A stretch of DNA of 64,000 bases from Sulfurimonas sp. GTDB taxonomy: Bacteria; Campylobacterota; Campylobacteria; Campylobacterales; Sulfurimonadaceae. The position numbers and the translations under genes are program-made. The notes beneath the pieces are model-generated. The model saw nothing but the letters and a program-made list of their open reading frames with translations. It was not told where the DNA came from and ran no database searches. Positions 1,626 to 17,934 of the stretch are shown here, in pieces; the first letter of the stretch is position 1, and each line of letters starts with the position of its first letter. Location of the stretch: the NCBI RefSeq assembly GCF_026196735.1, contig NZ_JAPHUF010000021.1:6744-70743 (forward strand), given 5' to 3'.

Positions 1626-2729
1626 ATGAAGAGATTTTTTGCACTGCTTATCGGCATTGTACTAACCCTTAGTGCAACACAACACCAAAATCTTCCTAAT
1701 GATGAAAAACTCAAAAAGATGATTGGAAGAATGCTTCTTGTCGGATTTCCAAATGAAGACATAGACAAAAACAGTGAGATAACAAGACACATAAAACAGT
1801 ATGAGCTTGGCGGTGTCATCCTTTTTGACCGTTTTTATGATGACAGAAGTAAAACAAAAAATATAAGCTCACCAAAACAACTTCAACTTTTAACTTCAAA
1901 ACTAAAATCATTCTCCAACAAAGCACTTTTAATATCCATAGACCAAGAGGGTGGAAAAGTTGCAAGACTAAAGCCCTCCTATGGTTTTGCTGAAATTCCA
2001 TCGGCAAAGCAGATTTCCACTCTACATGTAGATAAGGCAAAAGAGATATACAAGACTCAAGCGCAGATGCTTCAAAGTGCTGGAATCAACTGTGATTTTG
2101 CACCTGTAGTTGACCTGGCTGTTAACCCTGATAACAAAGTTATCTATGGGCTTGAACGCTCATATGGAAACAACTCCAAAGAAGTAGTCAAATACGCAAA
2201 AATATTTATGGACTCACTAAAAGATAAAAATATTATCAGTGTACTGAAGCACTTTCCCGGACACGGCTCATCACTTGGAGATTCTCATAAAGGTTTTGTA
2301 GATATAAGCAACACTTGGAGCGAAGCTGAACTTCAACCGTACAAAGAGCTTATAAAATCTGGCGAAGTTTCCATGATAATGACAGCACATGTCTTTAACT
2401 CAAAACTAGATAAAAAATATCCGGCAACACTCTCATACAATGTAAACACAAAGCTTTTACGAAATGAGCTAAACTACAAAGGCGTAGTTATCAGTGATGA
2501 CTTACAGATGAAAGCCATCTCGCAACACTACACATTGGAGCAGACAGTTACTCTGGCTATAAACTCAGGAGTTGACATGTTGCTTTTTGGAAATCAGCTC
2601 TCAGAGCAAAACATAGATGAACTTGTAGATGTTATTATTAAACAGGTTAAAAACGGTGCAATTTCTATGAGTAGAATCATCGAGTCAAACAAAAGATTAG
2701 AACTACTGCATAAAAAAAGACAAATATAA
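1626..2729 (+). CDS. nagZ: GH3 beta-N-acetylglucosaminidase (NagZ-like), with N-terminal signal peptide
   Basis: DQEGGKVARL, KHFPGHG..GDSH (Asp-His dyad) and SDDLQM motifs; hydrophobic N-terminus. Confidence 0.85.
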   Translation: MKRFFALLIGIVLTLSATQHQNLPNDEKLKKMIGRMLLVGFPNEDIDKNSEITRHIKQYELGGVILFDRFYDDRSKTKNISSPKQLQLLTSKLKSFSNKALLISIDQEGGKVARLKPSYGFAEIPSAKQISTLHVDKAKEIYKTQAQMLQSAGINCDFAPVVDLAVNPDNKVIYGLERSYGNNSKEVVKYAKIFMDSLKDKNIISVLKHFPGHGSSLGDSHKGFVDISNTWSEAELQPYKELIKSGEVSMIMTAHVFNSKLDKKYPATLSYNVNTKLLRNELNYKGVVISDDLQMKAISQHYTLEQTVTLAINSGVDMLLFGNQLSEQNIDELVDVIIKQVKNGAISMSRIIESNKRLELLHKKRQI

Positions 2730-5593: not shown

Positions 5594-6679
5594 ATGGATG
5601 AGCTTTACATTGGTGTGATGTCAGGCACAAGCCTTGATGGAGTTGATATAGCTCTATGCAAGATAAATTCCGGCTCTTGTGAGCTTGTGTTTTATGCGGA
5701 ATACCCTTTTGATACAAACTTGAAAAATGATATTTTAACTGCTATAAATGGACCGACTACTCTAAAAACCATAGGTGAACTTGACACTCGTTTAGGCAAA
5801 ATCTATGCCGAGTATATTACTGCTTTTATGCGCCATAACAATTTACAAAAAAAAGATATAAGTGCCATTGGACTACACGGTCAAACACTCTGGCATGAAC
5901 CAGACGGTGAGTTTCCTTTTTCAATGCAGCTTGGAAATGCCAACATTATAACAGCACAAACAGGCATTAGTGTTGTCAGTGATTTTAGACAAAAAGATAT
6001 AGCACTTGGCGGTCAAGGAGCACCTTTTGCGCCTGCCTTTCATAAGCAGATGTTCTCAAAACTAAATCGTAATATTGCAGTTGTTAATATTGGCGGCATC
6101 GCAAATCTTAGCATATTGGGAAATCAACTACTTGGCTACGATACGGGAGCTGGAAATGTTTTAATGGATTTTTGGATATCAAAGAAAAAAGGCCTCACTT
6201 ACGACAAAAATGGAGAGTGGGCAAGGTCCGGTCATGTCAGTGCAGAATTATTGGACACAATGCTCCGTGATCCATACTTCTCGAAAAAAGCTCCAAAAAG
6301 TACCGGTCGTGAATATTTCAACGAAAAATGGATAGAGAAGCAACTAGAAGAGTTTGGATATGTTATAGACAAAGATGTTCAAGCAACACTTCTGGAATTT
6401 ACCGCAGTAACTATCGCAAATGAAGTAAAAAAAAGCTCCGTTGAGCTTCTTTTAGTTTGTGGCGGTGGTGCAAAAAACGGTGCTCTTATGGAAAAGCTTC
6501 GCAGAGAGTTCAAAGATATTGAAGTATCTATCAGCGATTATTATGGTTTAAACGGCGACTTTATGGAAGCTATGGCTTTTGCATGGCTTGCGTATAAACG
6601 GATCAACAAAGAAAAAGTAGAGCTTTCATCGGTTACCGGTGCGAGAGAAAATTCTGTTTTGGGTTGTATATATGAATAA
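5594..6679 (+). CDS. anmK: Anhydro-N-acetylmuramic acid kinase
   Basis: GVMSGTSLDGVD, HGQTLWH, DFRQKDIALGGQGAP, NIGGIAN, DTGAGN and PKSTGRE motifs. Confidence 0.95.
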   Translation: MDELYIGVMSGTSLDGVDIALCKINSGSCELVFYAEYPFDTNLKNDILTAINGPTTLKTIGELDTRLGKIYAEYITAFMRHNNLQKKDISAIGLHGQTLWHEPDGEFPFSMQLGNANIITAQTGISVVSDFRQKDIALGGQGAPFAPAFHKQMFSKLNRNIAVVNIGGIANLSILGNQLLGYDTGAGNVLMDFWISKKKGLTYDKNGEWARSGHVSAELLDTMLRDPYFSKKAPKSTGREYFNEKWIEKQLEEFGYVIDKDVQATLLEFTAVTIANEVKKSSVELLLVCGGGAKNGALMEKLRREFKDIEVSISDYYGLNGDFMEAMAFAWLAYKRINKEKVELSSVTGARENSVLGCIYE

Positions 6680-7610
6680 AATAAAAGAGTGGCTACAAAC
6701 AACAAAATACAAAAATCACTCTTTAGAAATTGCTTCTGCTGATGCAAGTTTTAGAAAATACTACAGACTTACAAGTGGAGATGAAACTGTTTTACTTATG
6801 GACTCATCACTTGAAAAAGAATCTCTCACTTCATTTTTGGATGTGACTCAAAGACTTTTGGATGTACATGTCAATGCTCCTTGTATTTTAGAACAGAACC
6901 TGCAAGACGGCTTTTTGATTATCAAAGATTTTGGAAACACTCACTATCTGGATGTTTTAGACAATCAAAACTATAAGAGCCTTTATTTAAAAGCGATAAA
7001 TACCATTTTAAAGATGCAAAAAGCAGATACTTCAGGCCTTCCAATTTATGATAAAAAATTTCTACATGTAGAGATGGATTTGATGAAAGAGTGGTATTTG
7101 CAAAAGAAGCTAAACCTAACACTAGATGAGTCTCAAAAAGAGCTCATAACAAAGACTCTTGATGCTATATCAACTGTTGTGCTTGAGCAGCCCCAAGATG
7201 TTTTTGTTCACAGAGATTTTCACTCACGCAATATTATGATTGCAAACGAGCATGATATAGGTGTTATAGATTATCAAGATGCAATGAACGGAGCAATCAC
7301 TTACGACTTGGTCTCTTTATTAAAAGATTGCTATGTCGCTTATGACCGCAAAGAGATAAAAAACCTTGCCTTAGCATTTCGTGATAAAATCGATCTACAT
7401 GTAGATGATGAGACATTCTTAAAATGGTTTGATTTTATGGGTATGCAAAGACATATAAAAGTGCTTGGTATTTTTTCTCGTCTATATCTTCGTGATGGCA
7501 AAGATGGTTACTTAAAAGACATACCTCTCACTCTAAAATATGTACTTGATACTGCAAGCAGATATGATGAGACTAAAGAGTTGGCAGAGTTTTTAAAAGC
7601 GAAATGCTAG
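6672..7610 (+). CDS. amgK: Anomeric MurNAc/GlcNAc kinase (AmgK-like phosphotransferase)
   Basis: ADASFRKYYR, HRDFHSRN, DYQDA, YDLVSLLKD and QRHIKVLGIFSRL motifs; start ATG 6672; murU nearby. Confidence 0.85.
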   Translation: MNKIKEWLQTTKYKNHSLEIASADASFRKYYRLTSGDETVLLMDSSLEKESLTSFLDVTQRLLDVHVNAPCILEQNLQDGFLIIKDFGNTHYLDVLDNQNYKSLYLKAINTILKMQKADTSGLPIYDKKFLHVEMDLMKEWYLQKKLNLTLDESQKELITKTLDAISTVVLEQPQDVFVHRDFHSRNIMIANEHDIGVIDYQDAMNGAITYDLVSLLKDCYVAYDRKEIKNLALAFRDKIDLHVDDETFLKWFDFMGMQRHIKVLGIFSRLYLRDGKDGYLKDIPLTLKYVLDTASRYDETKELAEFLKAKC

Positions 7611-8482
7611 AGTATTCATACCCGTTATTTCGTCCGCCGGCAGAAGCTAACAACCTCATCCTACAAGTCACATTAGGTTGCAGCTACAACAACTGCAGCT
7701 TCTGTTCTATGTACAAAACTAAGAATTATGAGGTACGAGAGCTAGAAGATGTGTTCAAGGAGATAGATACTCTCGCGCATCATTACCCAAACGCAACTAA
7801 AATCTTTTTGGCTGACGGTGATGCTCTTTCTTTGCCTTGTGAACAGTTGTTAATATTACTAGATAAACTAAACAGCACATTTACTAAACTGCGAAGAGTA
7901 TCAACTTATGCTTCTACTCAAAATATACTTGGTAAATCAAACAAAGAGCTAGAACTTCTTTGTAAATCCAAACTAAATCTATTTTATTATGGTATCGAGA
8001 CAGGCAGTGATGTTGTGCTAAAGAAGATTACAAAGAGTGTAAATCAAGCAGAGATAATCACCTCACTGACTAAAGCGACTGACGCAGGTGTAAAGATATC
8101 TGCAACGGTCATTTTAGGCATTGGCGGAAGTAAATACTCCGACTTACATGTACAAGAGACTGCCAAAATTATCAATGCTACAAAAGTCAACTATCTCTCA
8201 ACTCTTCAACTAGGAATTGAAGAAGAAGCGAAAGAAAATTTCTACAGATACTTTGATGATTTTACAATGGCAGATGATGAGCAGATACTCTCTGAGCAAA
8301 AAAGGTTTTTAGAACTACTAGAGCCGACTAACAAAATCATTTTTCGCTCTAACCACGCTTCAAATGCTCTTCATCTAGCAGGCACTCTGCCAAAAGACAG
8401 AGACAGACTTGTTCAAGAGCTAAAAATGGCTCTAGATGTCGGAAAATCTGCTTTTGTTCCTAACTACTTTAGAGGATTTTAG
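7604..8482 (+). CDS. Radical SAM protein, function unknown
   Basis: CSYNNCSFC (CxxxCxxC); FRPPAEA and FRSNHASN segments. Confidence 0.85.
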   Translation: MLEYSYPLFRPPAEANNLILQVTLGCSYNNCSFCSMYKTKNYEVRELEDVFKEIDTLAHHYPNATKIFLADGDALSLPCEQLLILLDKLNSTFTKLRRVSTYASTQNILGKSNKELELLCKSKLNLFYYGIETGSDVVLKKITKSVNQAEIITSLTKATDAGVKISATVILGIGGSKYSDLHVQETAKIINATKVNYLSTLQLGIEEEAKENFYRYFDDFTMADDEQILSEQKRFLELLEPTNKIIFRSNHASNALHLAGTLPKDRDRLVQELKMALDVGKSAFVPNYFRGF

Positions 8483-8490
8483 GCAAATTT

Positions 8491-9150
8491 CTACTTTTTA
8501 GAATTCAGCCTTGACTGATACTCTTGTGGATGTTTACACACCGGACAGACTTTTAGCGCTTTTTTGCCATAATGGATATGACCGCAGACTTCGCATATCC
8601 AAGCCTCATTCTCATCTTCACTTACAAACTCTGCTTCTTCTTCGAGTCTATCCAAGAGCATTTTAAACATTTTTTCATGTTCGACTTCTATCTTGCCGAT
8701 TCCGGTAAATAGTTTTTCCGCTTCTTTGTGTCCCTCTTCTTTTGCAATAGCTGCAAACTCAGGATACATCTTCGTGTGTTCATAACGCTCACCGTCAATA
8801 GCTTCTTGAAGATTATATTCAGTATCTCCAAAGCTATCTTCACTCTCGTTTAGCATTCTGTTGTGAAGAGCAAGCTCCATTTTAGCATGTTGTTTTTCAT
8901 TGTCAGCAGCTCTTTGAAAGTGTTCTGCGATATCTCTAAAACCCTCTTTTTGAGCAACTTTAGCAAAGTACTCATACTTGTTTCTCGCTTGTGACTCACC
9001 GGCGAATGCTTTAAGCAGGTTTACCAGAGTCAAGTCATCAGTGACCATTTCCATATCTTGTCCACAACAAGAAAGAGTTCCGCCACCTACAGCTTGTACC
9101 TCAACAGCATTCCCACACTTTTTACATTTATATGATTCGTACTTTCTCAC
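8491..9150 (-). CDS. rrc: Desulforedoxin-rubrerythrin fusion (Rrc-type peroxide defence protein)
   Basis: N-terminal CKKCGN...SCCG, di-iron AFAGESQARNKY/NEKQH/EVEH, C-terminal CEVCG...CPVC. Confidence 0.85.
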   Translation of the reverse strand: MRKYESYKCKKCGNAVEVQAVGGGTLSCCGQDMEMVTDDLTLVNLLKAFAGESQARNKYEYFAKVAQKEGFRDIAEHFQRAADNEKQHAKMELALHNRMLNESEDSFGDTEYNLQEAIDGERYEHTKMYPEFAAIAKEEGHKEAEKLFTGIGKIEVEHEKMFKMLLDRLEEEAEFVSEDENEAWICEVCGHIHYGKKALKVCPVCKHPQEYQSRLNSKK

Positions 9151-11954: not shown

Positions 11955-12929
11955 GTGTTAAAGTCAATCTTACTAATATCTCTAAGCACTCTGCTTTTTG
12001 CAAAATACACAAACTGCGAATTTAAAAATGAAAACTATACAGAAATATGCCAAAAAGCGGTAAAAAACGGTGTCTCATATAAATATGCCAATGAATTTTT
12101 ACTCTCATATTTTAAGACGAAAAAATTTGATGAGGTAAGTTATAAATATCTTCAACCGAGATTTATCAAAGCTCATAAAAAAAATGAGAAAAAAGCCAAC
12201 AATGTACTTGTCAAATATATACCCGATATGGTAACTCATCTAAAAAAATATAAAGAGGTGTATGATTATGCGGAGAAAAAATACGGTGTAAACCGCGAGA
12301 TAATAGCTGCTATCTTAATAAAAGAGACCAGACTCGGCAAGATAAAACCTACTCATGATGCCTTTATAGTATTTAACACTTTAGTCGTACGAACCAAACC
12401 AAATTCTAGCCGTGAAAAGTGGCTGCTAAATATGGGTAAGACAAATATGACCTCTATCATCGTCCACTGTTATAAAAAGGGGGTAACTCCTGAGCAATGT
12501 AATCTGCCAAGCTCTTATGCAGGAGCTGTAGGGATACCGCAGTTTATGCCAAACAGTTTTGTTTATGCGGAGGGCTATAAAACAGAAGTGGCAGATCTAA
12601 CAAAGATGGAAGATGCCATTGTGTCAGCAAGCAAATTCTTACATAAAAAAGCAAATTTCTCAGTGTTGATTGATTGGAGTATTATGCCTGATATTCCAAG
12701 CATAGAATCTGAGTGGTATGATTATGAGTTCGAAAATGACGACGCTTCATTCGTTTATGCCCAAAGTAAAAAATCAAACAAAGTCTATGATTGTTTTACA
12801 TGTGAAAAACCGGAATTAACATACCTTAGGGAATATAGCAAAAAACTTATGCGTTATAACAACTCATCTAACTATGCTGTGGGCGTAATGCGTCTGGCAT
12901 ACGATGCACATAAAAGTCTCAATAAGTAA
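11955..12929 (+). CDS. Lytic murein transglycosylase (MltB/SLT_2-like)
   Basis: IKETRLG (catalytic Glu), SSYAGAVGIPQFMPNS and YNNSSNYA motifs; signal peptide. Confidence 0.85.
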   Translation: MLKSILLISLSTLLFAKYTNCEFKNENYTEICQKAVKNGVSYKYANEFLLSYFKTKKFDEVSYKYLQPRFIKAHKKNEKKANNVLVKYIPDMVTHLKKYKEVYDYAEKKYGVNREIIAAILIKETRLGKIKPTHDAFIVFNTLVVRTKPNSSREKWLLNMGKTNMTSIIVHCYKKGVTPEQCNLPSSYAGAVGIPQFMPNSFVYAEGYKTEVADLTKMEDAIVSASKFLHKKANFSVLIDWSIMPDIPSIESEWYDYEFENDDASFVYAQSKKSNKVYDCFTCEKPELTYLREYSKKLMRYNNSSNYAVGVMRLAYDAHKSLNK

Positions 12930-12935
12930 ATAAGT

Positions 12936-13190
12936 TTATTTTTTTGCTACATACTTATAATACAATAAACACCAGCCATTAGGATCGATAGAGCCTTCCA
13001 CTAATTTACATTCATTGGTTTCTGGGAGAAAATGTATACAATCAATGCACTTTTGCGAATCTTTTGGTGTATCTTGATAAGCTATCTTATTTTGAGCAAT
13101 TTTAGCCAGTAGTGGAGTAGTACCCCAAGTAACTAAACCGAGTAAAGCCATATATTTAAAAAACGCTCTTCTTGTAGAAATTCTCATCAC
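12936..13190 (-). CDS. High-potential iron-sulfur protein (HiPIP, small Iro-like type), Tat-exported
   Basis: STRRAFF Tat motif; YQDTP..CIDC-F..C..V.G.IDPNGWC four-Cys pattern. Confidence 0.85.
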   Translation of the reverse strand: MMRISTRRAFFKYMALLGLVTWGTTPLLAKIAQNKIAYQDTPKDSQKCIDCIHFLPETNECKLVEGSIDPNGWCLLYYKYVAKK

Positions 13191-13269: not shown

Positions 13270-14133
13270 TTAGTTAATCATGGCTTTTAAAGTGTGTGAT
13301 TCATTTGGTTTAATTATTCTGGCATCATCAAAAGCATTTGCAGATTCTATGCAGACCATACCTTCATAAGAACTAGGTTTCATAGCGCTCATTCTCTTGC
13401 ATTTGTCTACCCATGGATTCCAAACAACTACAGAAGATGAACCTTCATTTTGTATCTTGATTGTTCTATTTTTGTCTATTAGCAATATTTTTCCATAGAC
13501 ATCTTGATAAACTCTATCAATCTCTCTATTAAAAATTATATCTCCGTCTTGTATTTTTTCTTTCATACTCAAAGCATCAAAATACGGCTTTTTATCAAGA
13601 CCTTTTACTCTGACATGTGAAATATGCGAAATATCAAAATAGGTGTGCAGAGCCTGCGTAATAAGAAATGCTTTATCATCAAGATTTGTAGTTTTTAACT
13701 CCACAGTAAGAGTATCTGAAACTATTACATGTAACTCCAGCTCAAATCTATGCGGCCACAGTTTTAAACTCTCAGGTGTGTGAGAAAGTGAAAAAGTAAC
13801 TTCTGTTGAGTTGGCATCTGTCTCATTGGTATTTTTTAGCTTCCACATAGCAGTTCTTGCAAAACCATGCTGAGGCAGGCTTTCATCTTTAGGCATACGC
13901 CCTGAAGGAAGTGCCCTTGGGGTACCAAACCATGGCCAACAAACCGGAATACCACCGCGAATAGACTTCATATGCTCAAAGTCGCTACTCTCGCTAAGCC
14001 ACAAAACAGGGTTGCCGTAATGTCTTTTATACTCAAAAATATGTGCGCCTTGAAGTGCTATCTTGGCTGTCGCTGAAGTGTTTTTTATTTCTATGTACTC
14101 AAAACCGTTAATGAGCTTTTTGTGCTCTATCAC
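13270..14133 (-). CDS. D-hexose-6-phosphate mutarotase (aldose 1-epimerase family)
   Basis: IRGGIPVCWPWFG, HGFAR, ALHTYF and VVWNPW motifs; start moved to GTG 14133, overlapping the upstream TGA. Confidence 0.85.
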   Translation of the reverse strand: MIEHKKLINGFEYIEIKNTSATAKIALQGAHIFEYKRHYGNPVLWLSESSDFEHMKSIRGGIPVCWPWFGTPRALPSGRMPKDESLPQHGFARTAMWKLKNTNETDANSTEVTFSLSHTPESLKLWPHRFELELHVIVSDTLTVELKTTNLDDKAFLITQALHTYFDISHISHVRVKGLDKKPYFDALSMKEKIQDGDIIFNREIDRVYQDVYGKILLIDKNRTIKIQNEGSSSVVVWNPWVDKCKRMSAMKPSSYEGMVCIESANAFDDARIIKPNESHTLKAMIN

Positions 14134-15398
14134 CACTTTTGCCAAACTGTAATTTTGTGCCATTTAAAAGCATAAAAGAGTATAAAGACATAAGAGATTA
14201 TACCTAGTAAGTATGTTGATTGCATATCGCCGCTTACAGATGAGATCTTACCAAAAATAAGAGGCATTATCGCTCCACCTGCAATACCCATAATAAGCAG
14301 AGCGCTCCCTTGTGCTGTATACTTTCCAAGACCTTCCAATGCAAGCGGCCAGATGGTAGGCCACACAAGAGCATTTGCAAAGCCTAAAAGCGCAACAAAG
14401 GTTACGGTATTTGGAAGTGTCGGTATGCCCATCCATCCCCATAATATTTCTGAGATAAAGAAGCTGTCTGCCGATGAAGATACAACACCAATCAAAAACA
14501 AAATCCCAAAAAGAGCAGAGCCTATAAGTGCTTTTTCTTGTGAAAGATACTTAGGTATAAAAGCTACACCGACCAAGTAGCCCGCAACCATAAATACCAT
14601 AGTGTAAGAGGTAAGTGCAGTGGAGTTACCCACACCAAGATACTGTCCATAAAGCCCTATGGTATCTCCGGCTATAACTTCAATACCAACATAAAAGAAA
14701 AGTGCGACAGCACCTAAAACAACGCGAGGAAACTGGAAAATACTATTTTTATCCAAAAGAACTTCTTTTTCAAATTCTAGTTCAGGGAGCGATGAAAACT
14801 TAACAAGAGCTACAAGTCCCGCTAAAACAATAGCCATAATAATATAAGGAGTTATGAGTCTAGATGAGAGAGCCTCTTTTTCAAACGCCGATAGATTTTC
14901 TAAAGAACCAATATCTGAAAGGATAAGAGCTGTAAAAAGAAGAGGCACGATTACTCCTGCACCTTTATTTATAAGTCCCATTATACTTATTCTCATGGCA
15001 GCGCTCTCTATGGGTCCTATACAAACCACATAAGGATTTGATGCGGTTTGAAGTATGGTTAGTCCTGTTCCAAGTGTAAAAAGTGCAAGTAAAAACAGCA
15101 TGAAGCTTGCGCTTATTGCAGCCGGTATAAAAAGAAGACTACCAACAACCATAACAGCCAAACCAAGAGCCATGCCATCTTTGTAGCCTGTTTTCTCCAG
15201 CACATAAGACATTGGCAGCGCCATAACGGTATATGCTATATAAAAAACGAAAGTTACAAAAAGAGCTTGAAAGTCGTTAAGATCACATATAACTTTCAAA
15301 AAAGGTATAAGTGATCCATTTAACCATGTTACAAATCCAAATATAAAGAACAAGATTCCTATAATTACCATAGGTAACATCGTTGTCTTAGTGTCCAT
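14130..15398 (-). CDS. MFS sugar transporter, FucP/GluP (glucose/galactose/GlcNAc) family
   Basis: LFFIFGFVTWLNG, LQTASNPYV, YVGIE and GIAGGA motifs; 12 TM. Confidence 0.9.
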   Translation of the reverse strand: MDTKTTMLPMVIIGILFFIFGFVTWLNGSLIPFLKVICDLNDFQALFVTFVFYIAYTVMALPMSYVLEKTGYKDGMALGLAVMVVGSLLFIPAAISASFMLFLLALFTLGTGLTILQTASNPYVVCIGPIESAAMRISIMGLINKGAGVIVPLLFTALILSDIGSLENLSAFEKEALSSRLITPYIIMAIVLAGLVALVKFSSLPELEFEKEVLLDKNSIFQFPRVVLGAVALFFYVGIEVIAGDTIGLYGQYLGVGNSTALTSYTMVFMVAGYLVGVAFIPKYLSQEKALIGSALFGILFLIGVVSSSADSFFISEILWGWMGIPTLPNTVTFVALLGFANALVWPTIWPLALEGLGKYTAQGSALLIMGIAGGAIMPLIFGKISSVSGDMQSTYLLGIISYVFILFYAFKWHKITVWQKW

Positions 15399-16218
15399 TA
15401 CTTATGCCCTTTAAATATTTCGCAACTGCATCTTCATCGTTAGTATGTGGCAGTATTATATCCGCAGCTTTTTTTACGCTCTCTTGAGCATTTGCAACTG
15501 CAATAGCGTTGCCTGCAAGTTCAAACATTCCTAAATCGTTAAAATTATCACCAAACACACTAAGGTTTGAGAGGTCAAAATCGGCATATTCACTTATGCT
15601 TTTAATCCCGTGAGATTTATCTGCATCTTTATGTAAGACAGTTAAAAAGTAGCAGCCTGCGTAAACTTCCGGTGCTAAAATATACTTCAATATATCTCCA
15701 AAAGTCTTTTTGAAATGCTCAGCAATTTCGCTTAATTGTTTTTGCTCTGCAAAATACACAATTTTAAAGTTTTCATCCATTGTACGAAGATTTTTATGTT
15801 GATGGTGGTGATTGTCATTTTTATAATTTTTAATAATCTCTTTTTGATATGAATTTAAAGTAGTAGAGTATAAAAAAGACTCACTTAAGTCCTTATCAGC
15901 CAAAGAGAGTACAAAAGGGTATATGCCAAATTTTGCACCTTCATCTATGATAGCATCGCCTAGTTCTTTGTTTATAAACTTTGTGTCAATTATCTTCTTA
16001 TCCATAGTTGCTATCAGGGCACCGTCAAGAAGTATCATCGGTGCATTGATATGAATATCTTTTAAAAATTGTGCTGTTTTTTTGTATGTTCTTGCCGTTG
16101 CAACACTTACAATAGAATCAATTCCGACACTGTTCCAAACTTCTCTAGTAAAGGAGCTTACCGATAAATCTGTTCGCAGAAATGTGTGGTCAAGATCTGT
16201 TATATATACTTTTTTCAT
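15388..16218 (-). CDS. Cof-type HAD hydrolase (sugar phosphatase family)
   Basis: DLDHT motif I, ATAR motif II, K..G and FGDNFND motif IV. Confidence 0.85.
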   Translation of the reverse strand: MKKVYITDLDHTFLRTDLSVSSFTREVWNSVGIDSIVSVATARTYKKTAQFLKDIHINAPMILLDGALIATMDKKIIDTKFINKELGDAIIDEGAKFGIYPFVLSLADKDLSESFLYSTTLNSYQKEIIKNYKNDNHHHQHKNLRTMDENFKIVYFAEQKQLSEIAEHFKKTFGDILKYILAPEVYAGCYFLTVLHKDADKSHGIKSISEYADFDLSNLSVFGDNFNDLGMFELAGNAIAVANAQESVKKAADIILPHTNDEDAVAKYLKGISNGH

Positions 16219-16219
16219 T

Positions 16220-17836
16220 TTATTTCAACTTACATGTCATCATTTTCTCGACCAAAATTCGCCCAATTTCGACCTTAGTATCAACTACAGATGTAATATT
16301 TAAATCTTCTAAATTCTTTTTATCTTCTAAAGTCGCTACTTTTACAATAAGGTTAACATTTTTAGTATGTTTAAGTACCGCTTCACAAACTGCTCTTTTT
16401 TTATCAATATTGTCCAAAGTCACTATTACGGCAGCTGAGGCACTTGCATGAATGGCTTCTAAAAGAGAGAGCTTGGACATATCTCCCAGATATGCCTCTT
16501 TACCCTCATGCAAAGCTTCTTGAACATGTTTTGGTGAATTATCGATTATCACATATGGAGCATTTATCGTATCTAAGTTTTTTGCTACAAACTTACCTAT
16601 AATACTATACCCGCACACAATCACATGATTCTTTCTTGAAATAAAATCCGAAGTGTCTAAGCCCAGATATTCATGATGTGTTATACGGCTGACAAACTTG
16701 TTTATCTTAGAGATAAAAAATGGTGTAACGACCATAGATAAAATAACTATAAGAACAAACAGAGACTCTAGCTCTTTATCAAGCAATCCTCCCATGCTTG
16801 CAACTGCAAATATAACAAAAGAGAACTCTCCTACCTGAGAAAGTGCCAGAGCTGTTTTAAGTGATAGCATATGCGAAGATGTAATTCTGAGTAAAAGATA
16901 TATGATTATGGTTTTGAGTATTAAAACAAGTACAAATATCCCTACTATTGCTCCAATGTTGTTTACAAGAAAAAGAATATCTACTTTCATTCCCACAACA
17001 ATAAAAAATGTACCTAGAAGTATGTCTTTAAATGGTGCAATATCCGATTCCACCTTATGATGGTACTTTGTCTCGGCTATAATCATACCAGCTACAAAAG
17101 CACCGAGCGAATATGTAAAGCCCATTACCGAAGCCAATAGTGAAGCACTAATAACGATAAACAAAACGGAGGCCATAAAAAGTTCATCGACTTCACTTGA
17201 AGCTGAGAAGTGCAATAACCAAGTCATAACTCTTTTACCAACGACAAACATCAGTAAAATAATTATGACAGCACTTACAAAAGTGTCTCTTAAAATCATT
17301 CCAACTGAGCTATCGCCATTGCTGGTTAAAAACCCCAAAAGAATTAAAATCGGGATAACCGCAATATCCTGAAATATGAGTATTCCTGTCGCACGCTGAC
17401 CGTAAGGGTTGTATATCTCTTTTGAACTTTTGAGATAACTTAGCACAACTGCCGTGGAAGAGAGGGCAAAAGCCAAAGAGAGTATAAGAGCCGAGATAGA
17501 CTCAAGGTCAAAAATATAATGACTAATAGCATAAACAACCAAAGCTGTAAAACCAACCTGCATAAAGCCGTTAAAAAATATCTCCGTTTTCATGCTGTTC
17601 ATTTTTGCCAGAGATATCTCAAGTCCAATAGTAAACATTAAAAAGACTATACCAAACTCGCCAATATGCTCAAGCATTGATGAATCAGTCATATCTCTTA
17701 AATCAAATGCATAGACTATGATGGTACCAGTCAAGATATAGCCTATGATCTGCGAAACACCAAGACGCTTTAAAAAAAGGTTTAATACTGTCGAGACACC
17801 TAGTGCCATAACTATATAAAGAAGTGCAGAATCCAT
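16220..17836 (-). CDS. KefB/KefC-type K+/H+ antiporter (CPA2) with TrkA-N domain
   Basis: GIVFLMFTIGLE, LSSTAVV, LSQVGEFSFV and VIVCGY motifs; start placed at MDSALL (17836). Confidence 0.9.
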   Translation of the reverse strand: MDSALLYIVMALGVSTVLNLFLKRLGVSQIIGYILTGTIIVYAFDLRDMTDSSMLEHIGEFGIVFLMFTIGLEISLAKMNSMKTEIFFNGFMQVGFTALVVYAISHYIFDLESISALILSLAFALSSTAVVLSYLKSSKEIYNPYGQRATGILIFQDIAVIPILILLGFLTSNGDSSVGMILRDTFVSAVIIILLMFVVGKRVMTWLLHFSASSEVDELFMASVLFIVISASLLASVMGFTYSLGAFVAGMIIAETKYHHKVESDIAPFKDILLGTFFIVVGMKVDILFLVNNIGAIVGIFVLVLILKTIIIYLLLRITSSHMLSLKTALALSQVGEFSFVIFAVASMGGLLDKELESLFVLIVILSMVVTPFFISKINKFVSRITHHEYLGLDTSDFISRKNHVIVCGYSIIGKFVAKNLDTINAPYVIIDNSPKHVQEALHEGKEAYLGDMSKLSLLEAIHASASAAVIVTLDNIDKKRAVCEAVLKHTKNVNLIVKVATLEDKKNLEDLNITSVVDTKVEIGRILVEKMMTCKLK

Positions 17837-17934
17837 TAATATACTTTCCGTAAACAATTTAATTAAAGTATTATATACTATTAAGCTTATCAAAAAGTCA
17901 AGTTATATTTATTATATTGATGTACAATAAGTGT

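Follow-up and report, generated by a model that had tools for sequence, protein, structure and literature searches.

Which enzyme removes the phosphate from N-acetylmuramic acid 6-phosphate (MurNAc-6P) in a bacterium that carries the kinase producing this sugar, and in whose genome a search finds no protein reaching the cut-off for the phosphatase MupP? The question is raised by a 64,000-nucleotide stretch of DNA from a Sulfurimonas sp. (contig NZ_JAPHUF010000021.1, positions 6,744 to 70,743), referred to here as the window, in which a cluster of peptidoglycan recycling genes lies close to an operon encoding a HAD phosphatase, a sugar permease and a mutarotase. We judge the chances to be about even that this operon is an accessory arm of a periplasm-first, AmpG-free, anabolic salvage of peptidoglycan sugars, which would hand the kinase AmgK two free sugars. 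The HAD protein is the best candidate for the missing step, and we see about as much reason to accept as to doubt that it is a MupP analogue, that is, a MurNAc-6P phosphatase.

The operon and the gap in the pathway

The operon consists of three genes (coordinates are those of the window):

13270..14163, minus strand: YeaD/Ymr099c-type hexose-6-phosphate mutarotase, up to 297 amino acids, start uncertain; PF01263 (Aldose_epim), 150 bits
14130..15398, minus strand: NagP-like FHS-family MFS sugar permease, 422 amino acids, candidate importer of N-acetylglucosamine (GlcNAc); NF046060, 500 bits
15388..16218, minus strand: Cof-type HAD-IIB sugar-phosphate phosphatase, 276 amino acids, cytoplasmic, candidate MurNAc-6P phosphatase; PF08282 (Hydrolase_3), 148 bits

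These assignments come from a listing of open reading frames (ORFs) and from Pfam, NCBIfam and PDB searches with the window proteins; the genome behind the window is 2.19 Mb and 100% complete. The ORF listing and the domain searches agree with a preliminary description of this DNA, which had reported three minus-strand genes with overlapping ends, adjoining a kef gene and 3-6 kb from murU. The distance from the operon to murU is 3.4-6.3 kb, and the ORFs overlap by 34 nt (mutarotase and permease) and 11 nt (permease and HAD). Orthologues of the mutarotase align only from residue 10-20 on, the codons before that being unconserved, so that the true start of this gene and the 34-nt overlap are uncertain. 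Scans of the operon for promoters and terminators gave results at chance level, and it is thus from gene packing and conserved gene order that we propose co-transcription.

The neighbouring recycling cluster includes the following genes:

1626..2729, plus strand: NagZ, GH3 beta-N-acetylglucosaminidase with a Sec-type signal peptide; PF00933, 226 bits
2732..4213, plus strand: SSS-family sodium:solute symporter; PF00474, 102 bits
4273-5016: VanY-like peptidase with an export-type N-terminus
5594..6679, plus strand: AnmK, anhydro-MurNAc kinase, the producer of MurNAc-6P; NF007139, 474 bits (cut-off 367), and PF03702, 466 bits
6639..7610, plus strand: AmgK-like anomeric MurNAc/GlcNAc kinase; NF045759, 252 bits (below the 550 cut-off), APH fold PF01636
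9255..9914, plus strand: MurU, MurNAc-alpha-1-P uridylyltransferase; NF045761, 295 bits (cut-off 250)
11955..12929, plus strand: exported MltB-like lytic transglycosylase with an N-terminal hydrophobic leader, producer of anhydromuropeptides; PF13406, 111 bits

The mltB gene is convergent on the operon and stands between the mutarotase gene and murU in most Sulfurimonadaceae loci. Export-type N-termini are found on NagZ, the VanY-like protein, MltB and a nuclease-like protein, and on neither the HAD protein nor the mutarotase.

The anabolic route of Pseudomonas is defined by the joint presence of AmpG, NagZ, AnmK, MupP, AmgK and MurU, and this genome holds an incomplete set: AnmK, MurU and NagZ pass, the AmgK homologue is below its cut-off, and AmpG and MupP were not found. 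The preliminary description had left room for a true mupP elsewhere in the genome; the genome-wide search found no protein above the curated cut-off of the MupP model (NF009696; best score 88 versus 359 bits). Three HAD-IA proteins were considered as canonical MupP candidates (NF009696, PF13419) and rejected, none being near the cut-off; the best of them is a Gph-like protein whose gene follows hemH, and by its distribution it is a housekeeping protein. Genome-wide searches likewise found no MurQ, NagA or AmpG. With neither MupP nor MurQ found, the MurNAc-6P from AnmK is left with no annotated consumer. As the genome has neither NagK nor NagA, imported GlcNAc would be usable only via AmgK, an enzyme of dual MurNAc/GlcNAc specificity (PMC5371407).

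The HAD protein as a sugar-phosphate phosphatase

The HAD protein has the motifs (DxDxT, S/T, K and GDxxND) and the C2B cap fold of Cof-type HAD-IIB proteins, and residues D8, D10, T12, T41, K201, D224, N227 and D228 are kept in at least 95% of 136 sequences. It passes the broader HAD-SF-IIB model TIGR01484 (58.8 versus 41.8 bits) and falls under the cut-off of the Cof-subfamily model TIGR00099 (119.9 versus 137 bits). It does not match the MupP model NF009696 and is not of the HAD_2 (C1-cap) type to which MupP belongs. Its AlphaFold2 model (mean predicted local distance difference test score, pLDDT, 87.8) matches TM0651, BT4131, YidA, YbiV/SupH and PfHAD1 (mannose-6-P) with TM-scores of 0.72-0.81. 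To judge from this model, MurNAc-6P, which is a hexose-6-phosphate derivative, would fit the substrate class of Cof-type HADs.

Inheritance of the HAD gene with the recycling cluster

The distribution of the genes was determined in a family sample of 151 genomes and an order sample of 251 genomes. Family genomes with a match to each protein were:

HAD, 86 of 151
AnmK, 68 of 151
AmgK, 69 of 151
Permease, 66 of 151
Mutarotase, 102 of 151

The HAD is present in every AnmK-positive genome, both in the family (68/68) and in the order (21/21). The permease, where it is present in the family, is always encoded directly downstream of the HAD.

A similar association is seen in gene neighbourhoods, for which 80 related loci from species-representative genomes were mapped with the window proteins. 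The usual order in Sulfurimonas and Sulfuricurvum is HAD > permease > mutarotase > < mltB < murU < amgK < anmK < SSS < nagZ. In Arcobacteraceae and in one unclassified Campylobacterota metagenome-assembled genome, the HAD gene is directly convergent on murU-amgK-anmK-SSS(-nagZ), with neither permease nor mutarotase. One Sulfurovum locus has the HAD gene ~1.3 kb from murU; the gene therefore neighbours the recycling cluster in at least three families. The three genes had been taken as one module in the preliminary description. They are packed and overlapping in the window, but they do not form one evolutionary unit, since the HAD alone follows the cluster across families.

The tree of 136 HAD sequences separates two clades, A and B, with 99% support. 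Clade A holds every recycling-linked HAD, with 47 loci in which the HAD gene is within 10 kb of murU, amgK or anmK versus 7 that are unlinked (flanks of at least 6 kb). Clade B consists of families f4, f14, f17 and f19, two Arcobacteraceae genera and genus g3, and none of its HAD genes is near a recycling gene. Within Arcobacteraceae, genera with AnmK have a clade-A HAD and those lacking it a clade-B HAD, as a single copy per genome. The tree of AnmK agrees with that of the HAD, down to groupings that break taxonomy (patristic r=0.74 over 34 loci): in both trees one Arcobacteraceae group stands beside Sulfurimonas and another beside Sulfurovum. From these shared groupings, the HAD gene has been inherited, and apparently transferred, along with the recycling cluster.

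Clade B is nearly universal in several Campylobacterales families that have small genomes and no AnmK (f4, f14, f17 and f19; for example, loci L146-L156). We considered the neighbours of clade-B genes as a clue to the ancestral function of the HAD and rejected them, as they are conserved only within single families. The two clades are distinguished at six positions (H11, K80, L111, P183, E184 and L234), among which K80 is an extra lysine conserved in clade A; these are too few, and too unclear in pattern, to be read as a substrate signature.

If the HAD is instead a general sugar-phosphate phosphatase of Campylobacterales, the recycling cluster could have landed beside it and the pair could have been inherited or transferred as a block, with MurNAc-6P handled by another enzyme, such as the Gph-like HAD-IA (G000:C4:183001). 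We consider this unlikely, although it has to be taken seriously, as several observations count against a dedicated role in recycling. The preliminary description had left open whether the operon is distributed independently of the anmK cluster; for the HAD the dependence holds in one direction only: all AnmK-positive genomes have the HAD, but 56 of the 77 HAD-positive order-level genomes, in four other families, do not have AnmK, and genera g3 and g6 keep the HAD without AnmK, AmgK or permease. The HADs of g6, from genomes without the pathway, carry all six clade-A residues, and clade-specific residues are few in any case. The HAD gene either converges on the murU operon or stands apart from it, and in no case are the two co-transcribed. 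Physical linkage and en-bloc transfer could yield co-occurrence without shared function; related genomes are moreover non-independent samples, so that the co-occurrence of linked genes overstates their functional coupling. Clade B, g3 and g6 make it clear that the HAD family is older than the pathway or survives its loss, and because the family persists in lineages without the pathway, it probably also has an older, broader role on sugar phosphates. Finally, the Gph-like HAD-IA, with its 88 bits on the MupP model, could be a promiscuous enzyme for this step; MupP of Caulobacter was assigned from 33% identity to a phosphoglycolate-phosphatase-like protein (PMC13046382).

Four observations argue for a functional tie between the HAD and the cluster rather than for chance linkage. 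First, the linkage outlasts rearrangements: the HAD gene is divergent in G318, 12 kb away in g7, and in Sulfurimonadaceae remains linked across an inserted permease-mutarotase-mltB block. Second, in some Sulfurimonas the HAD gene and anmK are on separate contigs or >300 kb apart, and both are still kept. Third, the single HAD copy sorts by clade with the presence of AnmK in Arcobacteraceae. Fourth, the Gph-like HAD-IA does not track AnmK: 134 of the 151 family genomes have it, whether or not AnmK is present, and a search at E<=1e-25 gave no match in the AnmK-positive g2 genomes G002, G025 and G051.

Two unusual reading frames were noted among the HAD genes. Open frames of ~710 codons in g7 were considered as HAD fusions and rejected; the HAD ORF of G083 is 276 amino acids long and has its own start. 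In G117 (G117:C28:13284-14777), HAD residues 1-267 and permease residues 222-420 share one 517-amino-acid open frame, as if an internal deletion had fused the C-terminal half of the permease onto the HAD; to judge from the frame, the permease is probably inactivated there.

The permease and the location of NagZ

The preliminary description had asked whether the permease belongs with NagP or with GluP. By model scores it is NagP-like, with 500 bits over the full length of the NagP model (NF046060) compared to 230 for gluP (TIGR01272) and 158 for fucP, and it is found where NagZ is exported. It matches the FucP structure (3O7Q, E 4e-31) and has ~12 transmembrane peaks in its hydropathy profile. 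The names of its homologues are generic automatic labels and uninformative.

The N-terminus of NagZ in the window (MKRFFALLIGIVLTLSA/TQ) resembles a signal peptide, and signal-like N-termini are found on NagZ in 12 Sulfurimonadaceae-type loci (L047, L050-L052, L060, L065, L068, L078, L081, L086, L089 and L128). In contrast, NagZ starts at the mature domain, with no signal, in two Arcobacteraceae loci (L122 and L126). The permease is confined to Sulfurimonadaceae and is absent from five AnmK-positive Arcobacteraceae genomes, which are other than those of the two NagZ loci. Judged by these N-termini, the same cluster seems to work with NagZ in the periplasm in one family and in the cytoplasm in the other, in which case the SSS symporter would import different substrates in the two. 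The pattern fits a permease that would recover periplasmic GlcNAc and feed it to AmgK.

One Sulfurimonas genome, G081, is informative in this respect. It is without anmK and murU and keeps the HAD-permease-mutarotase genes beside mltB-amgK-nagZ. Its locus (L047; G081:C4:120000-138000), which is the only place searched for an SSS gene, has none. The nagZ ORF is called at 563 amino acids and has a signal-peptide-like N-terminus. This arrangement looks like either a remnant for GlcNAc salvage only or recent decay of the MurNAc branch, and the retention of the permease with NagZ and AmgK fits re-import of GlcNAc.

Set against GlcNAc import are the score of the permease, which is below the NagP equivalog cut-off (500 versus 625 bits), and three loci with exported NagZ and no permease (L067, L078 and L096); the correlation between the permease and NagZ export comes from few independent lineages. 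G081 itself is awkward for the wider proposal, in that its HAD and mutarotase are intact although AnmK and MurU are gone.

The permease could alternatively import a muramyl sugar (MurNAc, anhydro-MurNAc or GlcNAc-anhydro-MurNAc), making the operon a MurNAc-only arm, as might be suspected from its place beside MltB, the failure to find AmpG and the score below the NagP cut-off. This is improbable: in G081 the permease, NagZ and AmgK are kept although no muramyl-sugar route is left, anmK and murU being lost and no SSS gene being present in the locus. Furthermore, it is the SSS symporter, not the permease, that travels with anmK, including in Arcobacteraceae and Sulfurovum, and the nearest curated model to the permease is that of a GlcNAc permease, NagP.

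Uptake of glucose or galactose, which the preliminary description had offered as its alternative, is poorly supported and in our estimate very improbable. Imported glucose would be phosphorylated, its 6-phosphate anomerized by the mutarotase, and sugar phosphates balanced by the HAD. The permease does pass the GluP subfamily model TIGR01272 (230 versus 202.55 bits), which does not separate NagP from GluP, its relatives are automatically annotated as glucose/galactose transporters, and YeaD-type enzymes act on glucose 6-phosphate (PMC5902678). However, genome-wide searches of the 100%-complete genome found no glucokinase, ROK kinase or glucose-6-phosphate dehydrogenase, the NagP score is more than twice the gluP score, and across genera the HAD-permease pair is found together with, and near, genes for peptidoglycan recycling.

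Hardly credible is a role in stress relief after the logic of YigL/SetA in Escherichia coli, where a Cof-type phosphatase is paired with an MFS sugar transporter, so that the HAD would dephosphorylate accumulating sugar phosphates for export of the free sugar: the pairing is similar and the HAD weakly resembles the YigL model (58 bits), but FHS/NagP proteins are proton-coupled importers (FucP structure), the ties to NagZ export status and AmgK suit import, and nothing regulatory points to a stress circuit.

The mutarotase

The mutarotase matches 2HTA (YeaD of Salmonella; E 7e-40) and 2CIQ (yeast Ymr099c; E 1e-29) in the PDB, and retains the aligned R/H/R and H/E residues that mark hexose-6-phosphate mutarotases of this type. 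We take the His and Glu to be catalytic and the Arg/His/Arg to form the phosphate site, presumably as in Graille 2006. MurNAc-6P is a conceivable substrate because, of the enzymes found here, AnmK alone converts a salvaged sugar into a hexose 6-phosphate.

A role for the mutarotase in the operon is the weakest of our proposals, as the gene is widespread and often unlinked: genera g17 and g21 have it and none of the other genes, and in g7 and several Sulfurimonas species it is not linked to them.

Other genes around the operon

The gene next to the operon is:

16220..17893, minus strand: Kef-type CPA2 K+/H+ antiporter with a TrkA-N domain; PF00999 and PF02254

It is co-oriented with the operon and upstream of the HAD gene, with a 1-nt gap to the HAD start, and it has this position solely in the nearest Sulfurimonas/Sulfuricurvum loci. 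The kef gene is probably on the same transcript as the three genes, yet outside the salvage function. Both kef and a divergent GGDEF gene are called with TTG starts that are 23 bp apart (17893-17917); this is too little for two promoters, and at least one of the starts is therefore probably mis-set.

On the other side, a small HiPIP/Iro-like gene (12936-13190) lies between mltB and the mutarotase gene and is found only in a few close relatives (L050, L051 and L059); it looks like an insertion into this gap and to have no relation to the operon. Between amgK and murU (7604-9150 of the window), this genome carries two inserted genes, one for a radical-SAM protein and one for a rubrerythrin with a desulfoferrodoxin N-terminal domain. 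Most related loci have amgK next to murU, and L061 shares the insertion.

A proposed route and its implications

Starting from the gene identities, the pathway gap and the patterns of neighbourhood and co-inheritance, we propose the following route. MltB-type lytic transglycosylases, the exported peptidase and exported NagZ would release GlcNAc and anhydro-MurNAc in the periplasm. Anhydro-MurNAc would enter through the SSS symporter and be converted by AnmK to MurNAc-6P, from which the Cof-type HAD would strip the 6-phosphate, a step for which Pseudomonas uses the unrelated C1-cap HAD MupP. AmgK and then MurU would yield UDP-MurNAc. The NagP-like permease would re-import GlcNAc, to be used through AmgK (as GlcNAc-alpha-1-P) and GlmU. 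In the least certain step, the YeaD-type mutarotase may equilibrate the anomers of a 6-phosphorylated sugar, possibly MurNAc-6P, before the phosphatase and the kinase act.

A more ambitious proposal would hold jointly that the clade-A HADs of Campylobacterota are true non-orthologous MurNAc-6P phosphatases and that the Sulfurimonadaceae operon, as a feeder of AmgK, adds both a GlcNAc permease for the product of exported NagZ and the first mutarotase for an amino-sugar 6-phosphate (MurNAc-6P). All of this together is quite unlikely; if it were true, anomer control would be built into the recycling of peptidoglycan sugars, as it is in the Leloir pathway.

In the literature we searched, no paper connects Cof-type HADs with MurNAc-6P or gives an account of this operon. 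What is new is a probable non-orthologous phosphatase and an added arm for GlcNAc re-import on a known pathway. To our knowledge, MupP is the only enzyme family known for the MurNAc-6P phosphatase step, and there are many genomes with AnmK, AmgK and MurU but no clear MupP. If our proposal is correct, a second, structurally different phosphatase family would be a non-orthologous replacement at this step, and the pathway would be better annotated in other phyla as well as in Campylobacterota. The HAD, the exported NagZ, the SSS symporter and the NagP-like permease would jointly make up an AmpG-free, periplasm-first design for recycling in abundant chemolithoautotrophs, to which re-use of fixed carbon and nitrogen from wall sugars should be valuable. 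In Pseudomonas, the anabolic shortcut for MurNAc recycling underlies intrinsic resistance to fosfomycin.

Comparison with known systems

The HAD differs from the characterized Cof-type proteins BT4131, YidA, YbiV/SupH, PfHAD1 and TM0651 in sequence, with only 16-24% identity, and is like them in fold and catalytic motifs; these proteins dephosphorylate hexose and other sugar phosphates. We know of none among the five that acts on MurNAc-6P or is linked to peptidoglycan recycling.

The mutarotase is closest to YeaD and Ymr099c, which are its best sequence matches and with which it shares the catalytic and basic phosphate-site residues, but its gene differs in setting, sharing an operon with those of a permease and a phosphatase near genes for peptidoglycan recycling. 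In the Leloir pathway, the mutarotase GalM supplies the right anomer to the anomer-specific C1 kinase GalK, and a mutarotase supplying an anomeric kinase after a glycosidase or transporter step would be similar here. GalM, however, acts on an unphosphorylated sugar, while the window protein is of the subfamily that binds 6-phosphates, so the analogy may apply only at the level of MurNAc-6P. The family to which YeaD belongs tolerates variation at C2, and in the sulfoquinovose mutarotase there is a precedent for one that serves a single pathway and acts on sugars anionic at C6 (PMC5902678).

The permease shares a full-length match to NF046060 with NagP of Shewanella oneidensis (SO3503) and Xanthomonas, and the FHS family with FucP and GluP. 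The proposed fate of the sugar is different: NagP of Shewanella feeds the catabolic enzymes NagK-NagA-NagB, whereas here the sugar would go to AmgK for anabolic re-use.

The comparison with MupP is the closest in function. MupP (PP_1764/PA3172) is the MurNAc-6P phosphatase of the AnmK-MupP-AmgK-MurU route in Pseudomonas (PMC5371407, PMC5371409) and was discovered through phylogenetic profiling against amgK and murU (PMC5371407). An enzyme of this functional class hydrolyses MurNAc-6P specifically to MurNAc, and its loss leads to a build-up of MurNAc-6P and to fosfomycin sensitivity; the window HAD is a candidate for the class by context, namely the pathway gap, co-occurrence, neighbourhood and co-phylogeny. 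The reaction proposed for the window HAD and its place between AnmK and AmgK are the same, and both proteins are of the HAD superfamily. MupP, however, is a Gph-related HAD_2/HAD-IA protein with a C1 cap, while the window protein is a Cof-type HAD-IIB protein with a C2 cap (PF08282) whose family is also found in genomes without the pathway; it is a predicted analogue, not an orthologue. The route as a whole resembles that of Pseudomonas, with other parts at import and, putatively, at the phosphatase step.

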